From: Oscillospiraceae bacterium | GTDB taxonomy: Bacteria; Bacillota; Clostridia; Oscillospirales; CAG-272 | NCBI GenBank assembly: GCA_015065135.1 | Contig: SVQY01000008.1 | Coordinates: 1,264-65,263, forward strand | Direction of reading: 5' to 3' | Length of the DNA stretch: 64,000 nt | Part shown: positions 2,834 to 45,676 of the stretch, in pieces | Numbering within the stretch: the first letter of the stretch is position 1 | How the letters are laid out: each line of letters starts with the position of its first letter | Notes under the pieces: model-generated | What the model saw: only the letters and a program-made list of their open reading frames with translations | What the model was told of the DNA's origin: nothing | Database searches by the model: none | Program-made: the position numbers and the translations under genes

Positions 2834-2978
2834 ATGAAACGCATTTTATGTATAGTATTGGTTCTATGCGCACTGCCGTTTTGTCTCTTTTCCTGCAAAA
2901 GGGAGGATCCCTTCGACTTTCCCGAAACGGCAGAAACGGTCTATCCCATTGTGGAGGGCAGGCGTATTCCGTTTAAGG
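2834..2978 (+). repeat. copy 2 of ~145-bp conserved 5' module
   Basis: See 2212-2356. Confidence 0.8.
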
Positions 2979-3433
2979 TTTTATTCGTCAGCTCAGCCAG
3001 CGGCGCTTGCGATCATTTTGTGATCCGCAGTCTTTTTGAGGCAAAGAATGCATTGGGATGGGGCGTGATCTCCAGCTGGTGGGGGGAGGATATTCAAATC
3101 AGAGAAGCGCAGCAACAAATGCTGTTGGACGTGGATTACGATATGTATCAGGTGATTGCTGTTTCTGTCGTTGTGAATCCCTGCGGCGAGCCGCGCGGCA
3201 TTCGTCAGGTGGCCGAGCTGATAGAACGGGAGGGGGAGCTGGTTGCCGTATTTGATCGGAGCTATGCGCCCGAATCAGAGGACGTAATTAATAAAATGGA
3301 AGATTATGCCACCGTGATGCTGGTGCGCAAAAGCGATTACGATCTTGAAAATTGTACCGCGCCCTTCGGGCTGCGCGTGACCGGTTATATGTGCGATAAA
3401 AACGATCCTACCTATATTCAACCGTCCGTATAA
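2834..3433 (+). CDS. lipoprotein, unknown function (paralog B)
   Basis: MKRILCIVLVLCALPFCLFSCKRED; the signal peptide, lipobox and next ~25 residues are almost identical to paralog A. Confidence 0.7.
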   Translation: MKRILCIVLVLCALPFCLFSCKREDPFDFPETAETVYPIVEGRRIPFKVLFVSSASGACDHFVIRSLFEAKNALGWGVISSWWGEDIQIREAQQQMLLDVDYDMYQVIAVSVVVNPCGEPRGIRQVAELIEREGELVAVFDRSYAPESEDVINKMEDYATVMLVRKSDYDLENCTAPFGLRVTGYMCDKNDPTYIQPSV

Positions 3434-28311: not shown

Positions 28312-29490
28312 ATGAAGCACACCGGAATCATTTGCGAATACAATCCCTTTCACAGCGGGCATCTGCACCTGCTGGATACCGTTCGCGCCGCCGGCACCAA
28401 AACGGTGATCTGCCTGATGAGCGGCCATTTTACTCAGCGCGGTGAGGCTGCGATCCTGCCGCCCGCTGCCCGTGCCGCCATGGCGATGGCAGCAGGTGCG
28501 GATCTGGTGCTGGAGCTGCCCTTTCCCTATGCCGCCGCCTCCGCGCGGTACTTTGCCACCGCAGGTGTGGATGCCCTGCAGCGGCTTGGCGCAGACACGG
28601 TCGCCTTTGGCAGCGAGTGCGCCGATGCCGCGCGGCTCTCGGCCGCGGCCGCGCGTACTCTGACCGAGGATTTTGAAAAAAAGGTGGCAAACGGGGCGAA
28701 AAACAGGGGAGATGCGGCTGTTTTCTTTGATGCGCTCGGTGAGGAGCGGATCGGCGCCAACGATATTCTTGCGGTAGAATATATCCGCGCAGTCAAGCGC
28801 GGCGGTGACCGCCTGGCGGTCTATCCGGTCCTGCGCGAGGGGGCAGGGTATCACGATCTTTCGGAAAATGTCCTCCACCCCTCAGCGACCGCTCTGCGCG
28901 AGAGCATTTTTGCGGGCGCGGACATTGCCGACAGATTGCCGCCCTGCGTGCAGGGGGTCTGGCGTGAGGCCGCAGAGGCCCGGGGCTTTGCCGATACAGC
29001 CCGTTTGGGGGCGCCGGCTCTGGCGATGTTGCGCGCACTTTGCTTTCAAAAAGACGACACGTATGCAAAAAACAATGCATTTTTGATAGCGGATTGTGGC
29101 GGCGGACTGCTGGAGCGGCTGCAGAATGCGGCGGTGCAGGCGGATGGCTATCATAGTCTTTGCCGTGCCGCTGCCACCAAAAAATATACCGACGGTCGCA
29201 TCCGCCGTGCGCTGCTTTATCTGCTCGCCGGCGTGACCTATGCGGATCTTGAGGCGGCGCCTGCCTATCTGCGGCTGCTTGGCGCCAACGAGCAGGGCAG
29301 AGCATTTCTTTCCGAGACCCGGAAAACGCGCACCGTTCCCGTAGTAACCAAGCCTGCGGATATCACGGCGCTGGGTGAGACCGCCGTGCGGCAGCGTGCC
29401 CTGGAGCTGACTGCAGCGGGCCTCTACGCTCTTTGCCTGCCGTGTCCGACCTCGATGGCCGCGTTGCAGCTGCCGCCTGTCCTGATCTAA
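28312..29490 (+). CDS. tmcAL: tRNA(Met) cytidine acetate ligase (UPF0348/YlbM family nucleotidyltransferase)
   Basis: GIICEYNPFHSGHLHLL...MSGHFTQRGE...LELPFPYA closely parallels B. subtilis YlbM/TmcAL. Confidence 0.75.
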   Translation: MKHTGIICEYNPFHSGHLHLLDTVRAAGTKTVICLMSGHFTQRGEAAILPPAARAAMAMAAGADLVLELPFPYAAASARYFATAGVDALQRLGADTVAFGSECADAARLSAAAARTLTEDFEKKVANGAKNRGDAAVFFDALGEERIGANDILAVEYIRAVKRGGDRLAVYPVLREGAGYHDLSENVLHPSATALRESIFAGADIADRLPPCVQGVWREAAEARGFADTARLGAPALAMLRALCFQKDDTYAKNNAFLIADCGGGLLERLQNAAVQADGYHSLCRAAATKKYTDGRIRRALLYLLAGVTYADLEAAPAYLRLLGANEQGRAFLSETRKTRTVPVVTKPADITALGETAVRQRALELTAAGLYALCLPCPTSMAALQLPPVLI

Positions 29491-30320
29491 TGGCGGTTTT
29501 GCCGGCGGTATACGGTTGGGGAGATCCCGTAGCGGGCCGTAAACAGACGGCAGAAATAGAAGGGGTCCTCAAAGCCGATGACCTCCGCGATCTCGCCGAT
29601 CCGCATATCGGTATGTCGCAGCATGCTTTCCGCGTTGGAAAGGCGCAATCCGTTGCGGTATTCTACCGGGCTTTTGCCGGACCACTCCCGAAAGCAGCGA
29701 TAAAAATAGGTGCTGCTGACACCGCAAAGGGCGGCGTAATGCTCGATCCGCTCATTTTTGCTCCAGTCGGCGCGCAGCGCCTCCACGCCTGCGCGGATAG
29801 AGTAATAGGTGGCGGGAATGCTGCGGTTGGCAGAGACCAATGCGTCCAGCAGCCGGTAGAGGAGGGCCTTGATGGCCATCAAGCTCTCATAGCCACCGTG
29901 TACCGCCTCGTTTAGTTTTTGAAAGTGCAGGCGCAAAAGTCCCTCGCGGTCATTGGAGAGCAGGGCGATCCTGTCGCAAAGAAGCACCGAGCTGCCCGTG
30001 CGATCCCAAAGATCCAGGTTGACGGTGTAGGTGTCGATACCGTTGGGGGTGCCGCCCTCTACGCTGACGCGGTAGCGCGTGCCCTTGGGAATAAAGATCA
30101 CATCTCCGTGCTTGGCGGTCAAAAATCCACCACCGTGTGTCAAAAAATGAACCTTAATGTCGGTACATACCAGAAAAAGGGCAGAAACGGGACGTGGGGT
30201 CTCCTCGTATAGCGAGAAGGCCTTGCGACTGACCCAAGTCTCGGCAAAGACCTCGGGGCGGCCGAAAAGCAGGTCGCTTTCCCCCAACCGCTCGGGTGGA
30301 ACGATCATCATTTCTATCAC
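29487..30320 (-). CDS. AraC family transcriptional regulator (cupin + HTH), divergent from the glycyl-radical operon
   Basis: C-terminal IAEVIGFEDPFYFCRLFTARYGISPTVYR is an AraC HTH; N-terminal cupin-like sensor. Confidence 0.8.
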   Translation of the reverse strand: MIEMMIVPPERLGESDLLFGRPEVFAETWVSRKAFSLYEETPRPVSALFLVCTDIKVHFLTHGGGFLTAKHGDVIFIPKGTRYRVSVEGGTPNGIDTYTVNLDLWDRTGSSVLLCDRIALLSNDREGLLRLHFQKLNEAVHGGYESLMAIKALLYRLLDALVSANRSIPATYYSIRAGVEALRADWSKNERIEHYAALCGVSSTYFYRCFREWSGKSPVEYRNGLRLSNAESMLRHTDMRIGEIAEVIGFEDPFYFCRLFTARYGISPTVYRRQNRH

Positions 30321-30465
30321 CTCCGTGTTACCTTCATTATATCGCGGCCGAAGCGGCTTTTCAATAGCTTTGTTTAGAAAAATCCAGGTTTATACACAAA
30401 AATGTATGGCCGCGCCGCCTTGGCTTTGCTATAATAAGGATGAAAAAATCATGTGAGGTGCTACT

Positions 30466-31422
30466 GTGGCATATCTGTTTTTGTTGTTGGCGCTGCTCTG
30501 CCTGACCGTAAAGGGCTATTGCGGCAAGAAGACCAGCAATTACGTGACCTCGACGGGGGATTCGCTGCTTTTCAACCTGCTGCGCATGCTGTTTTGCATT
30601 TTGATCGGCCTTGTGGTGGTCTTTGCGGAGCGCGCAGGACGCGAGCTTGCCGTAGAGCCTGCTATGCTCTGGATCACGGTGGGGGCAGGCGTTGCCAATG
30701 CGGCATTCCTTGCAGGATGGCTGCTGGCGATCCAAAAAAATCCGTTGGTGACGGTGGACGTATCCCTGACCATCGGCTCGATCCTGCCTGCCATTCTGTG
30801 CTTTTTTATGTTCGGCGATGCCATTTCGCCTTGGAAGATGGGGGGCTTTGCCCTGATACTGGCCGCCACTGCCGTGCTGGCAGGGTACAGCAAGGATACC
30901 GGCAAAAGGCCGGGCTTGCTCGGCGTGCTGCTGGTACTGATCGCCGCCCTCGGTGACGGACTTTCCGGCTTCTTCCAGCAGCTCTACAAGCAGTATTATA
31001 CCGAGGTCGGCACGCGCCACCACGGCGTGTTTTACGCCAAGTCGGTGTATCATTTTTATACCTACGTGTTTGCGGCGCTGGTGCTGCTGCTCTGCTTCGT
31101 CGCCTTTGCGCTCTGGCAGTACCGCAAGCAGTCGAACACCCCGAAAACGCAATACGTCAAGGGGCTTTTTGCAACCTGCAGGGGGCCGCTGGCGCATATC
31201 GTCGTGATGGCGATTTGCCTGTTTGCCGCCAGCTATTTCCAAACCGTTGCCACCAACGATTTCGGTATGGATCCGCAGGTGCTGTACCCCGTCACCAAGG
31301 GCGGGTGTCTGATCACTGTCAACATCACAGCCATGCTCTTTTTTGGAGAAAAGCCGAACTGGCGCAGCGTCATCGGCTCGCTCATTGCCCTTGGCGGTAT
31401 CGTGATGATGAGCGTTCTGTAA
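30466..31422 (+). CDS. drug/metabolite transporter (DMT/EamA-like) superfamily permease, ~10 TM
   Basis: GTG start after GAGGTG; 318 aa, internally duplicated 5+5 hydrophobic segments; TATAAT at 30430-30435. Confidence 0.55.
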   Translation: MAYLFLLLALLCLTVKGYCGKKTSNYVTSTGDSLLFNLLRMLFCILIGLVVVFAERAGRELAVEPAMLWITVGAGVANAAFLAGWLLAIQKNPLVTVDVSLTIGSILPAILCFFMFGDAISPWKMGGFALILAATAVLAGYSKDTGKRPGLLGVLLVLIAALGDGLSGFFQQLYKQYYTEVGTRHHGVFYAKSVYHFYTYVFAALVLLLCFVAFALWQYRKQSNTPKTQYVKGLFATCRGPLAHIVVMAICLFAASYFQTVATNDFGMDPQVLYPVTKGGCLITVNITAMLFFGEKPNWRSVIGSLIALGGIVMMSVL

Positions 31423-31434
31423 GGGAGGAAGCAA

Positions 31435-33654
31435 ATGACCGATCAAGTAAATGTCAGAGAAGCGATCACCGCGTTGACCGAAAAGCCGATGCTCGCTACC
31501 AGCGTAGAGCGCTTGCTTATATTGAATGAAATAAAATCGGAGGGGAAGGAGCTGCCGCGCCCCTTGCGCTTTTCCTCTATGCTCTCAAAGCTGCTTTCCC
31601 GCGTGTCGGTACCGTTGGAGCCCTACGATCTGATCGCAGGGCGCTGCGTGGATCGCCTGCTTACCGACGAGGAGGAGCAGATCTTTCGGGATTTTTGCGT
31701 TCATCCCGACAATCCCAGGCAAACGAGGATCTTCCCCTCCTGCGGACATTGCAGCTACGATTGGGAAAACCTGATCAGTCGGGGCTTGCCCGGGCTGCGC
31801 GAGGCGGCGCTTGCCTCGCTTGCCGAAAAGACGGACGAGGATGAGCGCATCTTCCTGCGCGGCGTGCTGGAGATCTATGATGCGATCCGCGATTTCATGC
31901 TGCGCTATGCCGACGCTGCCGATGAAAAGGGCATGACCCGTGTGGCGAAAAATCTCCGAAAGGCCGCCACCGAGCGCCCCGACGATTTCTACTCCGCTCT
32001 GCAGCTTTTGTGGACGGTCGCCTTTATCAACTGCGCCTATATTACCCTCAATCCCACCCTGACCCTGGGGCGGATGGATCAGCTGCTTTACCCCCTGTAT
32101 GCCGCAGATCTTGCCGCAGGGCGGCTCACACGGGAGGAGGCGGGCGCGCTGATCACCGACTATTATTGCAAGCACAATCTGATCATGGGCAGAGGCGAGC
32201 ATCAGGTGGGAAATGCGAAAAATTCTACCACGTTCGACAGAATTTGTAACTTTGACGCACCCCAGTACCTGCTGCTGGGCGGCACCGTCCGGGGGGAGGA
32301 TGCGGTCAACGACCTGACCTATCTTTTCGTCGAGCGGATCGTTCCCGCCTTCAAAAACCCCGTTATGGTGGTGCGGTATTATCCGGGTATGGATCAAAAG
32401 CATCCGCGGCTCTGGGAAATGCTGGTCGGGCACTCGCTTGCCAGCGCCTCTCTGATGTATTACAACGATGACAATGTGAAAAGGACTCTCCGTCGCATCG
32501 GCTTGCCCGAGGAGGCCATCGAGGATTATGTGCATTTCGGCTGCAACTGGCCGGGGCTCGGCACGATGGGCTCCTGGATGTCGATCGGTCCCTCCGCCGT
32601 GCATTATGAGTGCTTTCGCTCCGAGGAGGAAAAAAAGGCGATCAAAGCGCCCTATATGCGCTACCGCCACAAGGGTGGCTGGCCGATGGTGCTGATGGAG
32701 GTGATGCGTGAGCTGGCCGATCGCCCGGGACTGACCGTGGCGGATCTTTACGAGGGCTTTTTTGCCAAGTGGAGCGATTACGTGGAGCGCAAGCTACAGC
32801 AGCTGGAGCTGGAGCTGACGGTGCGCCGTCGCCGTCCTGCCACCGTGCTGACCTATAACGACTGCTTCTCCGCCCATTCGGTGCGCACCGCCGGCTGCCA
32901 TTCGGCAGGGGCGAAGTACCATTACGAGTTCCAATCCTTTTATATGTTCGGCAGCACCGTGGACTGTATGATCGTGGCGGATCAGCTGGTCTTTTTGCAA
33001 AAAAAGCTGACGCTGAGGCAGCTGCTGGAAGCCGCAGATGCCAATTTTGAGGGCTATCCCGAGGTGCTGGCGCTTTGTCGCAGCGTGGAAAAATACGGCA
33101 GCGACACCCCTCATTCCAATAGCCATGCGAGGCGCATGGCAGAGGGCGCGATGGAGATCGTGATCGAAAAGAGCCGCCCCTATCTGGAAAAATACGGCCT
33201 GTTTCTGGAGCCGTGTCTGCAAAGCGATACCTGGCACTTAAAGGCAGGCCTGCTTGCGGGTGCCACCGTGGACGGGCGCCTTGCGGGCACCCCCTATTCG
33301 CAAAACAGCCGCCCTGCCAACGGCTCCTGCATCAACGGAACCACCGCCATGCTGAATGCCATGCTGCACCTGCCGCACGACGGCGTGCTTTCGGGGGCGC
33401 TCAACCTGGATGTAGACCCGAAGCAGTTCGCGGGGGAGGAGGGGCATCGGCTCTTCGGCACGGTGCTGGCCACCTATTTCAATAACGGCGGCCTGCACGC
33501 GCAGGTCTCCGCGGTTGGTCTCAAGGAGCTGATCGATGCTCAGGAAAACCCTGATCGGCACCGCGATCTGCGCGTGCGCGTGACCGGCTACAGCGGTATT
33601 TTTGTGGATATCTGCAAGGAGCTGCAGGATGACATCATTGAACGCTTTAAATAA
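31435..33654 (+). CDS. glycyl radical enzyme (PFL2/glycerol-dehydratase-like family), atypical active-site loop
   Basis: The C-terminus HRDLRVRVTGYSGIFVDICKELQDDIIERFK matches the glycyl-radical fingerprint (Gly718); GATVDGRLAGTPYSQNSRPANG and GGLHAQVSAV blocks; Cys loop HFGCNWPG (Cys370); RBS GGGAGGAAG. Confidence 0.8.
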   Translation: MTDQVNVREAITALTEKPMLATSVERLLILNEIKSEGKELPRPLRFSSMLSKLLSRVSVPLEPYDLIAGRCVDRLLTDEEEQIFRDFCVHPDNPRQTRIFPSCGHCSYDWENLISRGLPGLREAALASLAEKTDEDERIFLRGVLEIYDAIRDFMLRYADAADEKGMTRVAKNLRKAATERPDDFYSALQLLWTVAFINCAYITLNPTLTLGRMDQLLYPLYAADLAAGRLTREEAGALITDYYCKHNLIMGRGEHQVGNAKNSTTFDRICNFDAPQYLLLGGTVRGEDAVNDLTYLFVERIVPAFKNPVMVVRYYPGMDQKHPRLWEMLVGHSLASASLMYYNDDNVKRTLRRIGLPEEAIEDYVHFGCNWPGLGTMGSWMSIGPSAVHYECFRSEEEKKAIKAPYMRYRHKGGWPMVLMEVMRELADRPGLTVADLYEGFFAKWSDYVERKLQQLELELTVRRRRPATVLTYNDCFSAHSVRTAGCHSAGAKYHYEFQSFYMFGSTVDCMIVADQLVFLQKKLTLRQLLEAADANFEGYPEVLALCRSVEKYGSDTPHSNSHARRMAEGAMEIVIEKSRPYLEKYGLFLEPCLQSDTWHLKAGLLAGATVDGRLAGTPYSQNSRPANGSCINGTTAMLNAMLHLPHDGVLSGALNLDVDPKQFAGEEGHRLFGTVLATYFNNGGLHAQVSAVGLKELIDAQENPDRHRDLRVRVTGYSGIFVDICKELQDDIIERFK

Positions 33655-33672
33655 CAGAAAGTGAGAAACGGT

Positions 33673-34608
33673 ATGAAGAAAATCGTTATTCCCAACGGAC
33701 TTGAGGTCGCTCCCGCCGTGCTGGGCGCTATGAATTTCGGCACCACTACCTCTCGGGCGGATGCCTATCGCGTGCTGGATGCTTATATGGATATGGGGGG
33801 CAATTTTATCGATACCTCCAACAACTATGCCCATTGGGCGGGCAGCGGTGACGAGAGCGAGACGCTGCTTGGCGAGTGGCTTCGTGACCGCGGCTGCCGC
33901 GAAAAGGTGGTGCTGGCCACCAAGGTGGGCTTTGACCGCCACGGCGAGGGCGCCGGATTGAAAAAGGAGCAGATCGAATACTGGATCGACGAGAGCCTGC
34001 GCAAGCTTGGCACAGATCACGTGGATCTCTACTATGCGCACACCGATGATGCCAATACTCCCTTAGAGGAGACCATGGATGCCTTCGACCGCCTTGTAAA
34101 GAAGGGCAAGGTCAGGTGCCTTGGCGGCAGCAATTATGACACCTGGCGCTTTGCCGAGGCCAATGCTATCGCCACCGCAAAGGGGCAGACCCCCTTCACG
34201 GTGATGCAGCAGAAGTTCACCTATTTACACCCAAAATCCGATATAGCACCCAAGTATATCTTCAACGAGGCCGTGAGCAGAGAGCGGCTGCGCTATCTTG
34301 TGGATAAGGATATCCCTCTGGTGGCCTATTCCTGCCTTGCAAAGGGCGGATATGAAAATGATGAGCGCATTCCCGCGGATTATATCGTGGGTGATCGACT
34401 TGCCTTCATCCGCGAGATGGCAAAGGAGAAGGGCGTCGGCACCAGCGCGCTGGTGGTGGCGTGGATGGCCAATCTCCACCGTTTGGCAGGCTTCCCCCGT
34501 GTGCTGCCGCTGTTTGCCTCCTCCCGCGTGGAGCATTTTCTCGAAAATCTGAAGGGTCTGGAGCTGACCCTGACCGACGAGGATATGGAGCGCCTCAACC
34601 GCGCCTGA
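33673..34608 (+). CDS. aldo/keto reductase
   Basis: LGAMNFGTTT...GGNFIDTSNNYA...DLYYAH... is AKR-typical; ATG at 33673 (GTG at 33661 also possible). Confidence 0.8.
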   Translation: MKKIVIPNGLEVAPAVLGAMNFGTTTSRADAYRVLDAYMDMGGNFIDTSNNYAHWAGSGDESETLLGEWLRDRGCREKVVLATKVGFDRHGEGAGLKKEQIEYWIDESLRKLGTDHVDLYYAHTDDANTPLEETMDAFDRLVKKGKVRCLGGSNYDTWRFAEANAIATAKGQTPFTVMQQKFTYLHPKSDIAPKYIFNEAVSRERLRYLVDKDIPLVAYSCLAKGGYENDERIPADYIVGDRLAFIREMAKEKGVGTSALVVAWMANLHRLAGFPRVLPLFASSRVEHFLENLKGLELTLTDEDMERLNRA

Positions 34609-34628
34609 GCCTTCCCCGCAAAAAGGCA

Positions 34629-34657
34629 TTGACTTTTTGCTGCGGCTGTGCTATACT
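34629..34657 (+). promoter_or_regulatory. promoter of the small orphan gene
   Basis: TTGACT (34629-34634), 17-nt spacer, TATACT (34652-34657). Confidence 0.55.
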
Positions 34658-34690
34658 ATATAGGATATTTTAGGAAAGCGAGGCAGAGCA

Positions 34691-34996
34691 ATGGCAGAAA
34701 CCAAGAAAAAGGTAGAAGGCGAATATCTGCAGTATCAGGGCAAGCCTCTGGTCAGAGAAGAGAATACCATCATCTACGGCGACCTGAACAACGATCCCTT
34801 CGTGTTGGTGCTGGAGATCATGTCCTATAAAGAAGAAGCGGGAGAAAAGGTGCCGGATAAGGTGCTGATCCAGATCGTGGATGCAAAGGATCCCAACCGC
34901 TCCACCGTGCAGAGCGGCTCGAAAAGCGGCCTGCACGATGCGTTCTCTCTGGGACTCACCTGGCTTGATCTCAAGCTGAAAAAGAGCGCTCAATAA
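34691..34996 (+). CDS. small soluble protein (101 aa), unknown function
   Basis: Own promoter and terminator; codon usage resembles the neighbours; I recognise no motif. Confidence 0.5.
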   Translation: MAETKKKVEGEYLQYQGKPLVREENTIIYGDLNNDPFVLVLEIMSYKEEAGEKVPDKVLIQIVDAKDPNRSTVQSGSKSGLHDAFSLGLTWLDLKLKKSAQ

Positions 34997-34997
34997 G

Positions 34998-35040
34998 AAA
35001 AGGTGCGCCTGCCCTTGCGGCGGTCGCACCTTTTCTTTTT
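34998..35040 (+). terminator. rho-independent terminator
   Basis: AAAAGGTGCG...CGCACCTTTTCTTTTTT. Confidence 0.75.
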
Positions 35041-35134
35041 TGCTGAATAAATGTCCATAATTCGGTGAAAAAAATACTTGTATTTTCGCGTTGCGTGTGA
35101 TAGGATAAGGGAAAGGAAACAAGGGGGTGCGAAT

Positions 35135-37186
35135 ATGCTGCTTGACTTTTCACAGGGGAATATGACCTTCGTTGTAGAGGTGGATGAGAACGGGCGTGCC
35201 ATGCTGCGTCATTTTTGCAATGGCCCCGCCACCGACGAACGAGAAAAAGAGGCCAAATGGTGCCCGCTCGCCGAAATACACGTAACGGGCGAGAACGCAG
35301 ATGCCCATCACGGCATGAAGCATATAGGCAGCTACGGCTCGCGGGCGCTGAAATACGCGTCTCATGGCACGGAAACGGAGAAAGACGGTAAACGGGTCGT
35401 ATTTTTGCTATCAGACGGACGTATGAACGTGCGGGTCAGCTATCGCTTTTACAACGGCATTCAGGCCGTTCGGGCATGGTGTGAGGTGAAGAACGTCGGA
35501 ACCGATCCCCTCGGGCTGGAGTATGTCAGCAGCTTTTCCTACACGGGTCTTGACGCGGGCGAGCCCGCTCCCCTTTACAAGAGCGTGCGGGTTGCCGTTC
35601 CGCATAACGGAAATGTGCGCGAGTGCAATTGGCAATGGTACGGTATGGAGGAGCTGGGGCTGCGTCGGATATCCTCCTCCTGCACGAAGCACTGTACGGT
35701 ATCCAACACGGGCACCTGGTCGGGCAAGGAGTTTTTGCCCATGGGCGCAGTGGAGAACGGGGATACGGGGTGCTGCTATCTTTGGCAGATCGAGCATCAC
35801 GGCTCCTGGCAGTGGGAGCTTGGCGAGGTCTCTCAAATGCTGTATCTCAAGCTCAGCGGTCCTACCGAGCAGGAGAATCACTGGTACAAGGAGCTGCAGC
35901 CGGGCGAGTCCTTTACTACCGTTCCCGTGGCGCTGACTGTGGCCGGGAATTTTGAGGCAGCCGTTGCGGAAATGACAAAATACCGCCGTGCTTTGTTCCA
36001 AGGCAACGGAGCGGGGGCGGGCATGCCCGTGATCTTTAACGATTACATGAACTGTCTTGGCGGAGATCCTACCGAGGAACGGGAGCTGCCCATGATCGAT
36101 GCGGCAGCTGCCGCGGGAGCGGAGTATTACTGCATAGATGCGGGCTGGTACGCAGACGGCACCTGGTGGGAGACGGTGGGCGAATGGCTTCCCTTCAAGG
36201 GGCGGTTCCCGAACGGCATCAAGCGCGTGTTTGACTATATTCGAGAAAAGGGCATGATCCCCGGCATCTGGCTGGAGATCGAGGTCATGGGTATCGAATG
36301 CCCCTTGGCGAAAGAGTGGGAGGACGAATGCTTCTTTCTGCGCCACGGTAAGCGTGTCATCGACCACGGGCGCTATCAGCTGGATTTTCGCCATCCTCGC
36401 GTGCGTGCTCACGCCACGGCGGTCGTGGACCGCGTGATACGGGAGTACGGCGTGGGATATATCAAAATGGATTACAACATCGAAGCAGGTATCGGTACGG
36501 AGGTGTCGGCGGACAGCTTTGGTGACGGACTGCTGCAGCATAACCGTGCGTATCTCGCGTGGTTGGACGAGACCCTCGCCCGGTATCCCGATCTGGTGTG
36601 GGAAAATTGCAGCAGCGGCGGTATGCGTATGGATTACGCGATGCTGCAACGGGCGCATATCCAGTCGGTGACTGACCAGACCGACTATCGGAAAATGACG
36701 GTCATTGCGGCGGCCGCCCCCACGGCGGTCCTGCCGGAGCAGGCCGCCGTCTGGAGCTATCCCTTGGCAGATGCGGATGCGGATGCTGCAGCCTTCAATA
36801 TGGTCAATGCCATGCTGCAGCGCATCCACCTGTCCGGCAAGCTGACACAGCTGTCCGAGCCTGCTTTTCGCGCCGTGCGAGAGGGGGTGGCGGTCTACAA
36901 GACCTATCGGCATCTGCTGCCTGCTGCCCTGCCGTTCTGGCCCATGGGATTGCCCCAAGTGGGCAGACCGTGGCAAGCCCTTGGGCTGCGTGCCGAGGGA
37001 CGGGCACTGGTGGCTCTTTGGCGCATGGGCGACGAGGAGAGCACCCTTTTGCCTGTAAGGGGTAGGGCGCGGATCCTGTACCCTACCGAGAGCGGTGCCT
37101 GCGTGACGGCGTGCACGGATGGCATACGGATCAGGATGCCTCGCGCGAGTACAGCGGTTTTACTTGAAATCATTGAAACGGTATAA
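35135..37186 (+). CDS. alpha-galactosidase (GH36)
   Basis: ATG at 35135; YYCIDAGWY, IKMDYN and ENCSSGGMRMDY match GH36 catalytic-domain motifs. Confidence 0.8.
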   Translation: MLLDFSQGNMTFVVEVDENGRAMLRHFCNGPATDEREKEAKWCPLAEIHVTGENADAHHGMKHIGSYGSRALKYASHGTETEKDGKRVVFLLSDGRMNVRVSYRFYNGIQAVRAWCEVKNVGTDPLGLEYVSSFSYTGLDAGEPAPLYKSVRVAVPHNGNVRECNWQWYGMEELGLRRISSSCTKHCTVSNTGTWSGKEFLPMGAVENGDTGCCYLWQIEHHGSWQWELGEVSQMLYLKLSGPTEQENHWYKELQPGESFTTVPVALTVAGNFEAAVAEMTKYRRALFQGNGAGAGMPVIFNDYMNCLGGDPTEERELPMIDAAAAAGAEYYCIDAGWYADGTWWETVGEWLPFKGRFPNGIKRVFDYIREKGMIPGIWLEIEVMGIECPLAKEWEDECFFLRHGKRVIDHGRYQLDFRHPRVRAHATAVVDRVIREYGVGYIKMDYNIEAGIGTEVSADSFGDGLLQHNRAYLAWLDETLARYPDLVWENCSSGGMRMDYAMLQRAHIQSVTDQTDYRKMTVIAAAAPTAVLPEQAAVWSYPLADADADAAAFNMVNAMLQRIHLSGKLTQLSEPAFRAVREGVAVYKTYRHLLPAALPFWPMGLPQVGRPWQALGLRAEGRALVALWRMGDEESTLLPVRGRARILYPTESGACVTACTDGIRIRMPRASTAVLLEIIETV

Positions 37187-44271: not shown

Positions 44272-45603
44272 TCAATGTAGCTGCCAAATAGCGGGCTGTT
44301 CGTTCGAGTCATAATACCACCAATTTCCCGTTAAGGAAGGACGTATGTCAGAATAATAAAACCATGTTGCAAAATTTGTTAGATTTCCATTGGAACCTCC
44401 AATGGAAATATTTTGCCGAGTATTTTCGGTTCCACCATAATATACCTTGGCCCTATAATCGCAATCACAGAATGCTTCTTCAGCAATATTTGTTACGCTA
44501 TTTGGAATGACTATAGACGCAAGTTTGGTTTTATAAAATGCTCTATAGCCAATGGAAGTTAGTTCACTCTCTTTCCCAAACACCAGTTGCGTCAAGGTGT
44601 CACAACAACTAAATGCAAAAGGATTAATATTTCTCACACTGTCTGGTATAACAATAGTCTCAAAATTGCCACACCCCCAAAAAGCATAATTAGCAATACC
44701 TACACTATTATCACGCAAAGTAACACTCATTACTTCATCATCACAATCTACAATCCATTTATCAACATATGATACGCCATTTTCTTTTTGAATGACACCA
44801 TTACAGCCTTCAAACGCATCTTCTCTAATGTTAACCACACTATTAGGTATGGTAATTGAAACTAAGTTCTCACATCCCTGAAACGCCTTGGCACCGATTT
44901 TTGTGACACCATTAGGGATGGTAATTGAGATCAAATTACGGCAAAGAGAGAACGCACGATCTCCAATGCTTGTAATGCCGTCAGAAAGAACAACAGAAGT
45001 CACATTACTGCACATGTAATTGTTAAAAGCATCTTCATTAATGGCAACAATAGGCGTTCCCTTGTAAGTAGACGGAATTATCACTATATTGTCGCTTCCG
45101 GTATAACGTGTAACAACATAGCCATCATTTATAAGTTTAAATTCCACACCACTGTCCGCATAATCGTAGCCACATTGCACGCAAACATTGTCTAAATTAT
45201 AAGTGTGGGCGGATTCTGATATAATCAACCTACATCCTCCATTAACGCAAACTTTCCAGTGGTTGACCATATCCTTTTTCCACTCTGCAGAAGGCAAATG
45301 TTCCAATTCAGCAACATACTGCGTTTCACTTTGTCCGCACGAGCAAGCGCGTGTTTGAATGCCCTTTGTCACACAGGTGGCAGGGGTGGTTTCGATCCAT
45401 TCGCCATAGGCGTGGGTATGAAGCGACCCACTCGCATCGGTGCCATCGGTGTAGCTCTCGCTGCACTTGTCGCAAAGCGCATTATCGTCGGCGTCGCGGT
45501 GCTGGCAGACGGGAGCAGAGCTCTCGTCGCAAGCCACAAGACACAGAATACACAAAAGGCACAATAGGGCCGCTAACGTGATGAGAAATGCGCGTTTTTT
45601 CAT
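44272..45603 (-). CDS. surface lipoprotein with Cys-rich N-terminal region and BspA-type leucine-rich repeats
   Basis: ATG at 45603; MKKRAFLITLAALLCLLCILCLVAC lipobox; repeated IPNSVTxIxxxAFxxCxxL units; the LRR part has much lower GC. Confidence 0.7.
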   Translation of the reverse strand: MKKRAFLITLAALLCLLCILCLVACDESSAPVCQHRDADDNALCDKCSESYTDGTDASGSLHTHAYGEWIETTPATCVTKGIQTRACSCGQSETQYVAELEHLPSAEWKKDMVNHWKVCVNGGCRLIISESAHTYNLDNVCVQCGYDYADSGVEFKLINDGYVVTRYTGSDNIVIIPSTYKGTPIVAINEDAFNNYMCSNVTSVVLSDGITSIGDRAFSLCRNLISITIPNGVTKIGAKAFQGCENLVSITIPNSVVNIREDAFEGCNGVIQKENGVSYVDKWIVDCDDEVMSVTLRDNSVGIANYAFWGCGNFETIVIPDSVRNINPFAFSCCDTLTQLVFGKESELTSIGYRAFYKTKLASIVIPNSVTNIAEEAFCDCDYRAKVYYGGTENTRQNISIGGSNGNLTNFATWFYYSDIRPSLTGNWWYYDSNEQPAIWQLH

Positions 45604-45676
45604 GGTCGTTCTCCTTTGAGTGTATTTTTTGAAAGCGGGCAAACGGTGTGCAAACAGCACATCTGCAGGCTGCGCG

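Follow-up and report, generated by a model that had tools for sequence, protein, structure and literature searches.

What does a glycyl-radical enzyme do when it is encoded between a transporter and a reductase, beside a divergent regulator and with no activase in reach? The question is raised by a 64,000-nt stretch of DNA from an Oscillospiraceae bacterium (contig SVQY01000008.1, 57.2% GC; hereafter the window, meaning the whole stretch that was analysed), where genes for a DMT-family transporter, a glycyl-radical enzyme (GRE) and an aldo-keto reductase (AKR) lie in tandem next to an AraC-type regulator gene. GREs are responsible for much demanding anaerobic chemistry in the gut, including choline, hydroxyproline, sulfonate and anhydro-sugar metabolism, and each newly assigned GRE clade has revealed a new metabolite flux. 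They need a cognate radical-SAM activase, which is normally encoded beside the GRE. We found that the window's GRE belongs to a large new subfamily of this well-known superfamily, marked by a catalytic-loop signature without precedent and by a reductase as its constant partner.

The active site of a C-N-W subfamily

A sequence-only reading of the window had proposed searches with the Pfam models PFL-like (PF02901) and Gly_radical (PF01228), and both matched the 739-aa protein encoded at 31435–33654 (+) above their gathering scores (3e-52 and 4.2e-16, respectively). The protein's AlphaFold2 model (pLDDT 83.7, pTM 0.88) was aligned by Foldseek to about 50 GRE chains with a probability of 1.00 and TM scores of 0.70 to 0.79. 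Compared with the solved structures of the PFL2 class (glycerol and propanediol dehydratases, CutC, HypD, HpyG/HpzG, IslA/IseG, HpsG, HplG and YbiW/PflD), the enzyme is equidistant from every characterised class, with TM scores of 0.73 to 0.79 and a uniform identity of 18–22%. Its scores against the NCBIfam equivalogs were all 4- to 20-fold under the respective cut-offs (HpsG, 189.5 versus 1000; HypD, 170.9 versus 1100; CutC, 169.4 versus 1050; TIGR01255 (pyruvate formate-lyase, PFL), 47.1 versus 994.2), and the subfamily model TIGR01774 (PFL2-3) gave 193.9 versus 678.2.

We compared the motifs of 77 family members with those of solved enzymes, aligned by phmmer and by searching a family profile against the PDB. 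The glycyl-radical loop, R715-V-T-G718-Y-S-G721 (33577–33597, +), lies within a Gly_radical domain that spans residues 623–724; every one of the 76 sequences spanning its column has Gly718, and the loop is identical in loci with and without an activase. The thiyl-radical cysteine, Cys370, is invariant (77/77) and aligned with Cys433 of glycerol dehydratase (GD). It is placed in the loop G369-C370-N371-W372-P373 (32539–32553, +), where Cys, Asn and Trp are each invariant in all 77 members, and where Trp372 stands at the position of GD Glu435. The aligned loops read GC433vE435P in GD, GCvE in HpzG and GCtE in HpsG, with the CutC cysteine loop aligned at the same place, versus G-C-N-W in the window; the Cys-Cys pair of PFL is absent, as the cysteine is followed by asparagine.

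A second catalytic position is retained. His105 (codon at 31747–31749, +), also invariant in 77 of 77 members, is the counterpart of GD His164, which protonates the leaving group; the family motif 'sGHctysW' is aligned by the profile with 'vGHvsvdY' of GD and 'vGHvtvqY' of propanediol dehydratase (PD). GD Ser282, which like Asp447 and Tyr640 is taken here to be functional in the GD structure, is replaced by Thr208. Another set of invariant residues is specific to the family: K246, N248, E255-H256-Q257, R269, F273-D274, Y278 and Q596-S-D598.

The C-x-E motif is retained in all six C–O eliminases, CutC, the C–S lyases and three isomerases, where the glutamate is hydrogen-bonded to a substrate hydroxyl, and this glutamate is catalytically essential in CutC and IslA (PMC13450708). 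The C-N-W loop thus departs from a motif common to every eliminase and isomerase characterised so far, in which the glutamate hydrogen-bonds to the substrate hydroxyl or acts on it as a base. The sequence-only reading had described the protein's C-terminus as nearly residue-for-residue that of a PFL2-class dehydratase; the description is apt for the glycyl-radical loop and fails beyond it, with C-N-W in place of C-x-E and a TIGR01774 score of 194 versus 678. Judged by its motifs and modelled fold, the 739-aa protein is best described as a genuine GRE of a new subfamily that falls outside the canonical PFL2 dehydratases.

The conserved GRE-AKR unit and its surroundings

The family is large and all of it uncultured: it comprises at least 445 GRE homologs, counted as sequence clusters and each about 740 aa long, in at least 80 species-level genomes. 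Among the 120 homologs listed (59–96% identical to the window GRE), none has an assigned substrate; the names, where given, are 'hypothetical protein' or an automatic 'formate C-acetyltransferase' (JGI). The proposal of a novel system had been made dependent on the lack of a homolog above 60% identity with an assigned substrate, and no such homolog was seen among these 120. We then scanned for related loci, taking one genome per species, and added the 80 found to the window's own locus; the presence and position of neighbouring genes were counted by tblastn of the window proteins against these 81 loci. Every one of the 80 comes from an uncultured gut organism (roe deer, goat, sheep, cattle, buffalo, rabbit, chicken or Hadza), most of them Oscillospiraceae or other members of the Clostridia; Lentisphaerota, Victivallales and Verrucomicrobiota account for a few. 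The genome nearest to the window is an Oscillospiraceae metagenome-assembled genome (MAG), SVQT01, with a 93% identical GRE.

The GRE gene is followed directly by the AKR gene in 76 of the 78 loci with enough flank, and the gap between them has a median length of 19 nt. The AKR is 61–87% identical over the family, compared with 45–93% for the less conserved GRE, and its catalytic tetrad (Asp47, Tyr52, Lys84 and His123) is invariant in 64 of 64 sequences. A DMT gene is immediately 5′ of the GRE gene in 26 of 72 loci, mostly together with a divergent AraC gene; about 22 related loci have a homologous divergent AraC gene upstream of DMT-GRE. When 918 flanking open reading frames (ORFs) were clustered all against all, nothing conserved emerged besides the GRE, AKR, activase, AraC and DMT. 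Given the near-constant adjacency, the invariant tetrad and the lack of anything else conserved in the flanks, the core of the system is the GRE-AKR unit, while the activase, the transporter and the regulator are optional additions. The conserved module that the sequence-only reading had envisaged is therefore borne out for GRE-AKR and, in about a third of the loci, for the transporter. The GRE-AKR unit is widespread in uncultured Clostridia of the herbivore and human gut, and is present in a few Lentisphaerota and Verrucomicrobiota.

Two other arrangements were seen. L083 and L087 (7001–10762), and also L048, encode a C-N-W-type GRE without an AKR, 53% identical to the window GRE and with an activase directly after it; the GRE gene in loci of this type is preceded by one for a 212-aa predicted membrane protein without a significant Pfam match, and the organism has 43.7% GC. 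L029 (3960–13879; Christensenella sp. UBA1259) has three tandem GRE/activase pairs, of which two contain distant GREs (22–25% identity), each with its own activase, followed by a C-N-W-type GRE-AKR-activase unit.

Within the window, the coordinates and strands of the four ORFs are those that the sequence-only reading gave, and Pfam agrees with its family calls for the regulator's DNA-binding domain, the transporter, the GRE and the AKR. The AraC/XylS-family regulator (277 aa; 29487–30320, −) carries a well-supported helix-turn-helix at residues 195–274 (HTH_18, 1.8e-21; HTH_AraC, 4.8e-21); the cupin domain that had also been assigned to it is represented by sub-threshold matches in the N-terminal domain (EutQ, Cupin_2 and Cupin_6; E 0.03–0.15). 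The DMT/EamA-family transporter (318 aa, 10 transmembrane segments; 30466–31422, +) matches two EamA repeats (PF00892, 2.9e-8; 34.5 bits versus a cut-off of 28.2), with no NCBIfam match and no sugar-type or triose-phosphate-type DMT match in Pfam even at E ≤ 5. The AKR (311 aa; 33673–34608, +) matches Aldo_ket_red (PF00248, 2.5e-59) and reaches no NCBIfam equivalog cut-off; the solved structures nearest to it belong to generic AKRs, among them DepB and YghZ-like enzymes. The first start codon of its ORF is a GTG at 33661, and the ATG at 33673 agrees with the 311-aa gene calls in orthologous loci. The three co-directional genes are separated by 12 nt (DMT-GRE) and 18 nt (GRE-AKR), as had been noted.

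We read the control signals as consensus matches only. In the divergent control region (30321–30465), a TTGAAA-17-TATAAT element lies upstream of the AraC gene on the minus strand (30364–30336; 11 of 12 consensus matches), while the GTG start of the DMT gene is preceded by an extended −10 element, TGcTATAAT (30427–30435), and a GAGG ribosome-binding site (30455–30458). The layout of a divergent AraC gene and a DMT-GRE-AKR operon would fit these promoter-like elements. Directly past the AKR stop codon, the 82-nt junction at 34609–34690, which is the activase slot in related loci, contains TTGACT-17-TATACT (34629–34657). This promoter-like site suggests that the next gene has its own promoter and that the 3′ edge of the module is marked there.

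That next gene, orf101 (101 aa; 34691–34996, +), occupies the slot in which relatives have the activase. It appears to encode a small, strongly conserved protein, 85–93% identical in L001, L008 and L010 with a dN/dS of 0.04–0.09; it has no Pfam match even at E ≤ 5, and is followed by a terminator-like hairpin at 35016–35028. Elsewhere in the window, a 462-aa ORF with a signal-peptide-like N-terminus (44272–45660, −; GC3 of 0.38) lies within a 2-kb stretch of 45.7% GC, compared with 57% for the window, and may have been horizontally acquired. Two tandem paralogous ORFs (2158–2814 and 2834–3433, +) share a lipoprotein-like N-terminus (...LCVLLILCALPFCLFSCK) in a stretch of 50% GC, lower than that of the window.

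Presence and loss of the linked activase

No activase was detected when the 64 kb were scanned in all six frames (stop-to-stop frames of at least 60 aa): the CxxxCxxC pattern occurred only in two short, non-activase-like frames near 279–1555, in agreement with the sequence-only reading. We counted an activase as absent when none was seen and the locus had at least 3 kb of downstream and at least 1 kb of upstream flank; together with the loci that have an activase this gave 61 informative loci, with 20 too short to judge. Of the 61, 44 have an activase gene in the flank, located directly after the AKR gene (36 loci), after the GRE gene where there is no AKR (2 loci), directly before the GRE gene and from a different activase lineage, 35–37% identical (4 loci), or elsewhere in the flank (2 loci). 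The remaining 17 loci, about 28% and including the window, have sufficient flank and no activase. The absence is consequently not a property of the system, since most informative loci have an activase, typically right after the AKR.

The window's closest relatives show where the gene would have been. The syntenic relative L005/L006/L009 has the gene order acetate kinase, nucleotidyltransferase, AraC, DMT, GRE and AKR, and its GRE is 69% identical to that of the window. It carries a 263-aa radical-SAM activase, which in L009 begins 8 nt past the AKR stop codon; this protein combines Fer4_12 and Radical_SAM domains with a CNLNCFWC motif and ferredoxin-like cysteine clusters. Within the window's clade, L009 has this activase, while L007, L010 and the window do not; none was seen in L008, where the flank is too short. 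In L007, L008, L010 and the window, the AKR gene is instead followed by the 101-aa orf101, which is unrelated, highly conserved and preceded by a promoter-like site of its own, and the DNA in the window's slot is unrelated to the L009 activase, with no remnant of it. Activase-less loci are dispersed over the tree. Because most members of the AraC-DMT clade have an activase, L009 of the window's syntenic sub-clade among them, the distribution implies that the window's activase was lost in its own lineage and that the absence is not a family trait.

The remaining genes are not decaying. A comparison of the window with L001, which has a 93% identical GRE ortholog and is likewise activase-less, gave dN/dS values of 0.10 (GRE), 0.08 (AKR) and 0.16 (DMT transporter), which show purifying selection on all three. 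Gly718, Cys370 and the RVTGYSG loop are unchanged in activase-less members. The same comparison gave a mosaic of synonymous divergence. The DMT and GRE genes (30466–33654) have a dS of 0.29–0.36 and 93% amino acid identity, whereas the flanking AraC gene (29487–30320) and the AKR, orf101 and GH36 genes (33673–37186) have a dS of 1.0–1.8 and 67–93% identity. The lower dS of DMT and GRE than of their neighbours suggests that recombination between related species has recently replaced the DMT-GRE segment.

With the linked activase missing, it is plausible that the window's GRE depends on one encoded outside the 64 kb. Two unrelated activase lineages occur in the family (54–68% and 34–38% identity to the L009 activase), which indicates that activases have been exchanged before and that the pairing has some flexibility. 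A search of a protein collection with the L009 activase returned P0137, listed on 21 contigs, and P0002, on 17. P0137 lies in a GRE-activase locus without an AKR, and we rejected it as the activase of the window's genome: its locus is from an organism that is identical to L083 (SIG516) and has 43.7% GC, versus 57.2% for the window. In a separate observation, the MAG SVST01 (Oscillospiraceae SIG676) contains two paralogous GRE-AKR units, L014 and L022, neither with an activase within 9–10 kb, which is consistent with a shared, unlinked activase.

The activase-less state is real, yet ordinary within the family; more deserving of attention are the GRE-AKR unit and the C-N-W active site. The repeated loss of a linked activase, at about 28% of informative loci, bears on how partner-specific GRE activases are, and the activase of the sister locus is ready for use in reconstitution.

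Candidate reactions and comparison with known systems

The sequence-only reading found no described GRE pathway that combines a transporter, an AKR and an AraC regulator, and we found none either, in a June 2026 review (PMC13450708) or in literature searches; those for pathways with a GRE plus an AKR yielded only an unrelated sulfoquinovose review. The genomic context gives a few hints. Unrelated glycoside hydrolase genes lie after or beside the module in independent arrangements (GH36 in the window; GH42, GH31, GH5 and GH32 at other loci), and a PTS EIIC gene and a gene for a PfkB-like kinase, as identified by Pfam, lie near some family loci. In one subclade (L055, 6747–9859; L052, L035 and L033), a Pyr_redox_2 / DUF1667 / DAO+BFD trio is directly 5′ of the GRE gene, on its strand in L055, and UROD-like, GH32, BNR_2 and pectate-lyase-like genes lie downstream on the opposite strand. 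We take the trio to be of the clostridial glycerol-3-phosphate dehydrogenase type. Together, the context points weakly to carbohydrate-derived compounds, with glycerol-type substrates as one candidate.

Our best reading, which we hold tentatively and stop short of calling probable, is that a GRE of a new subfamily forms a carbonyl from a carbohydrate-derived hydroxy compound, that the AKR reduces this carbonyl and that an unlinked activase installs the radical. The DMT-GRE-AKR genes would form a substrate-inducible operon under the divergent AraC gene. After activation, Cys370 would abstract hydrogen from a small compound that bears hydroxyl groups and probably derives from carbohydrate; one candidate is a glycerol-type polyol, or a derivative that is phosphorylated or otherwise anionic. 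Water or some other leaving group would then be expelled with the help of His105, whose alignment with GD His164 argues for eliminase-like chemistry, and Asp598 or Glu255 could act as the substitute base in place of the missing glutamate. The AKR would reduce the carbonyl product with NAD(P)H, serving fermenters as a redox sink or detoxifying an aldehyde. The dedicated activase would have been deleted in this genome, so that a radical-SAM activase encoded outside the 64 kb would have to activate the GRE.

Several observations weigh against this reading. The C-x-E glutamate is absent in all 77 members, so that classical elimination chemistry may not apply, and its absence argues against a plain glycerol dehydratase in particular. 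GD Asp447 aligns with variable position 383 and GD Tyr640 with Gln596, and neither is kept. The confidence of the AlphaFold2 model is lowest in the family-specific active-site loops, where the invariant block falls. Outside the core the context is heterogeneous, which makes the glycerol and carbohydrate hints weak; the substrate, the kind of reaction and the sequence in which the two enzymes act are all putative. An activase acting in trans was not found in the protein-collection search with the L009 activase. GRE activases are usually partner-specific, with the sequence of the glycyl-radical loop as one determinant (PMC13450708), and this specificity weighs against trans-activation.

Other explanations account for parts of the same evidence. 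The two enzymes could act in the opposite order, with the AKR converting an aldose, a keto-sugar or a small aldehyde to a polyol or hydroxy compound that the GRE then dehydrates, isomerises or cleaves to a central metabolite. AKRs include the classical aldose and 1,5-anhydrofructose reductases, the neighbouring glycosidases would supply free sugars, and conserved genes of a downstream pathway are lacking. Moreover, the GRE isomerases YbiW and PflD use anhydro-alditol phosphates as substrates (PMC13450708). The tightly coupled and near-invariant gene order of GRE then AKR speaks weakly against this order of reactions, as it fits either; the known isomerases, however, require the C-x-E glutamate that the C-N-W family lacks, and no conserved kinase or aldolase is there to use the product. 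We consider this reversed order unlikely. A different departure would be a reaction class new to GREs that does without the Cys-loop glutamate, either the elimination of a phosphate or other anionic group from a C3 compound or sugar phosphate (e.g. glycerol-3-phosphate to hydroxyacetone) or a C–C cleavage, with the AKR trapping the carbonyl. The C-N-W loop has no precedent and does not vary, family-specific segments contain invariant residues of cationic or polar character (K246, R269, E255-H256-Q257, D274 and D598), Cys or Ser594 stands where HpsG and IslA have their sulfonate-binding arginine, the GRE is equidistant from all solved classes, and one subclade carries the upstream trio that we take to be glycerol-3-phosphate dehydrogenase-like. 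However, the idea is speculative, and the conservation of His105 favours ordinary dehydratase-like acid catalysis. A residue other than glutamate at the Cys+2 position would also already exist in phenylacetate decarboxylase, where we presume that the catalytic cysteine is Cys482 and hence that Gln484 is the Cys+2 residue. Gln484 is catalytically essential in that enzyme (PMC13450708). A reaction class of this kind is accordingly a doubtful proposition; if it were true, Clostridia of the herbivore gut would have a redox sink or salvage route of a kind not seen before, which could run on a shared, unlinked activase.

The missing activase could also mean that its deletion left a relic, a GRE that can never be activated in this genome. 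No activase within 64 kb, the usual partner-specificity of activases and the unrelated DNA that fills the slot of the L009 activase would all be expected of a relic, but the ORFs are intact, dN/dS between two activase-less orthologs is only 0.08–0.16 over the DMT, GRE and AKR genes (dS of 0.29–1.08), the catalytic residues are fully kept in activase-less members, the state recurs across the tree at 17 of 61 informative loci, and the SVST01 assembly has two activase-less copies. Taken together, these observations make a relic quite improbable. Least credible of all is that the protein is simply a known enzyme, namely PFL, glycerol or propanediol dehydratase, CutC, HypD or a sulfonate lyase. Its generic Pfam domains match and its best sequence matches are PFL2-class enzymes, but it has neither a Cys-Cys pair nor a C-x-E motif, its identity to all solved structures is 18–22%, and its equivalog scores are far below the cut-offs; we rejected this assignment at the sequence level from the motifs and scores. 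Returning to the reading in which the GRE forms a carbonyl that the AKR reduces, the NAD(P)H-dependent partner offers a built-in reporter for a coupled assay.

The known systems resemble the window's module in different respects. Phenylacetate decarboxylase (PAD/PhdB), compared with the window at the superfamily level only, appears to be a characterised PFL-like GRE that, like the C-N-W family, has no glutamate at Cys+2 (Gln484, if Cys482 is the catalytic cysteine); it differs in decarboxylating arylacetates and in lacking an AKR partner. The anhydro-alditol-6-phosphate isomerases YbiW and PflD (8ID7, 8ID0) share a carbohydrate context, as they act on a sugar-derived polyol and as some C-N-W family members adjoin PTS and kinase genes. 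They differ in keeping C-x-E, in having aldolases downstream rather than an AKR and in being about 20–22% identical to the window GRE. The C–S lyases HpsG and IslA (6LON, 7KQ3) align with the window GRE over its full length, and HpsG expels an anionic leaving group to yield the ketone hydroxyacetone, a possible mechanistic analogy. However, their sulfonate-binding Arg/Gln/Arg triad is not found in the window GRE, where the Gln position is His105 and Arg672 is replaced by Cys594, and C-x-E is missing.

The N-methyl-hydroxyproline dehydratases HpzG and HpyG (8IOF, 8ID1) have the same PFL2-class architecture, and 8IOF is the best PDB sequence match of the window GRE (1.8e-53 by phmmer and 2.5e-65 with the family profile). 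HpzG differs in having C-x-E and a glutamate at the position of His105, in acting on amino acids and in having neither an AKR nor a DMT gene in its context. The B12-independent dehydratases, GD (DhaB1; 1R8W, 1R9D) and PD (5I2G, 9RCO), differ from the window GRE in their length (about 790–850 aa versus 739 aa), in Glu435 (Trp372 in the window) and in Asp447 and Tyr640, which are not kept, and are about 20% identical to it; their reductase is an iron-type alcohol dehydrogenase rather than an AKR, and the window's module has no microcompartment. They nevertheless share its fold (TM 0.75–0.79), the RVxGYS glycyl-radical loop, the catalytic cysteine and the leaving-group histidine, with GD His164 corresponding to His105 and Ser282 to Thr208. 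Their pathway logic is also alike, a radical enzyme followed by carbonyl reduction, with the activase encoded in the operon, as it is in most of the window's relatives.

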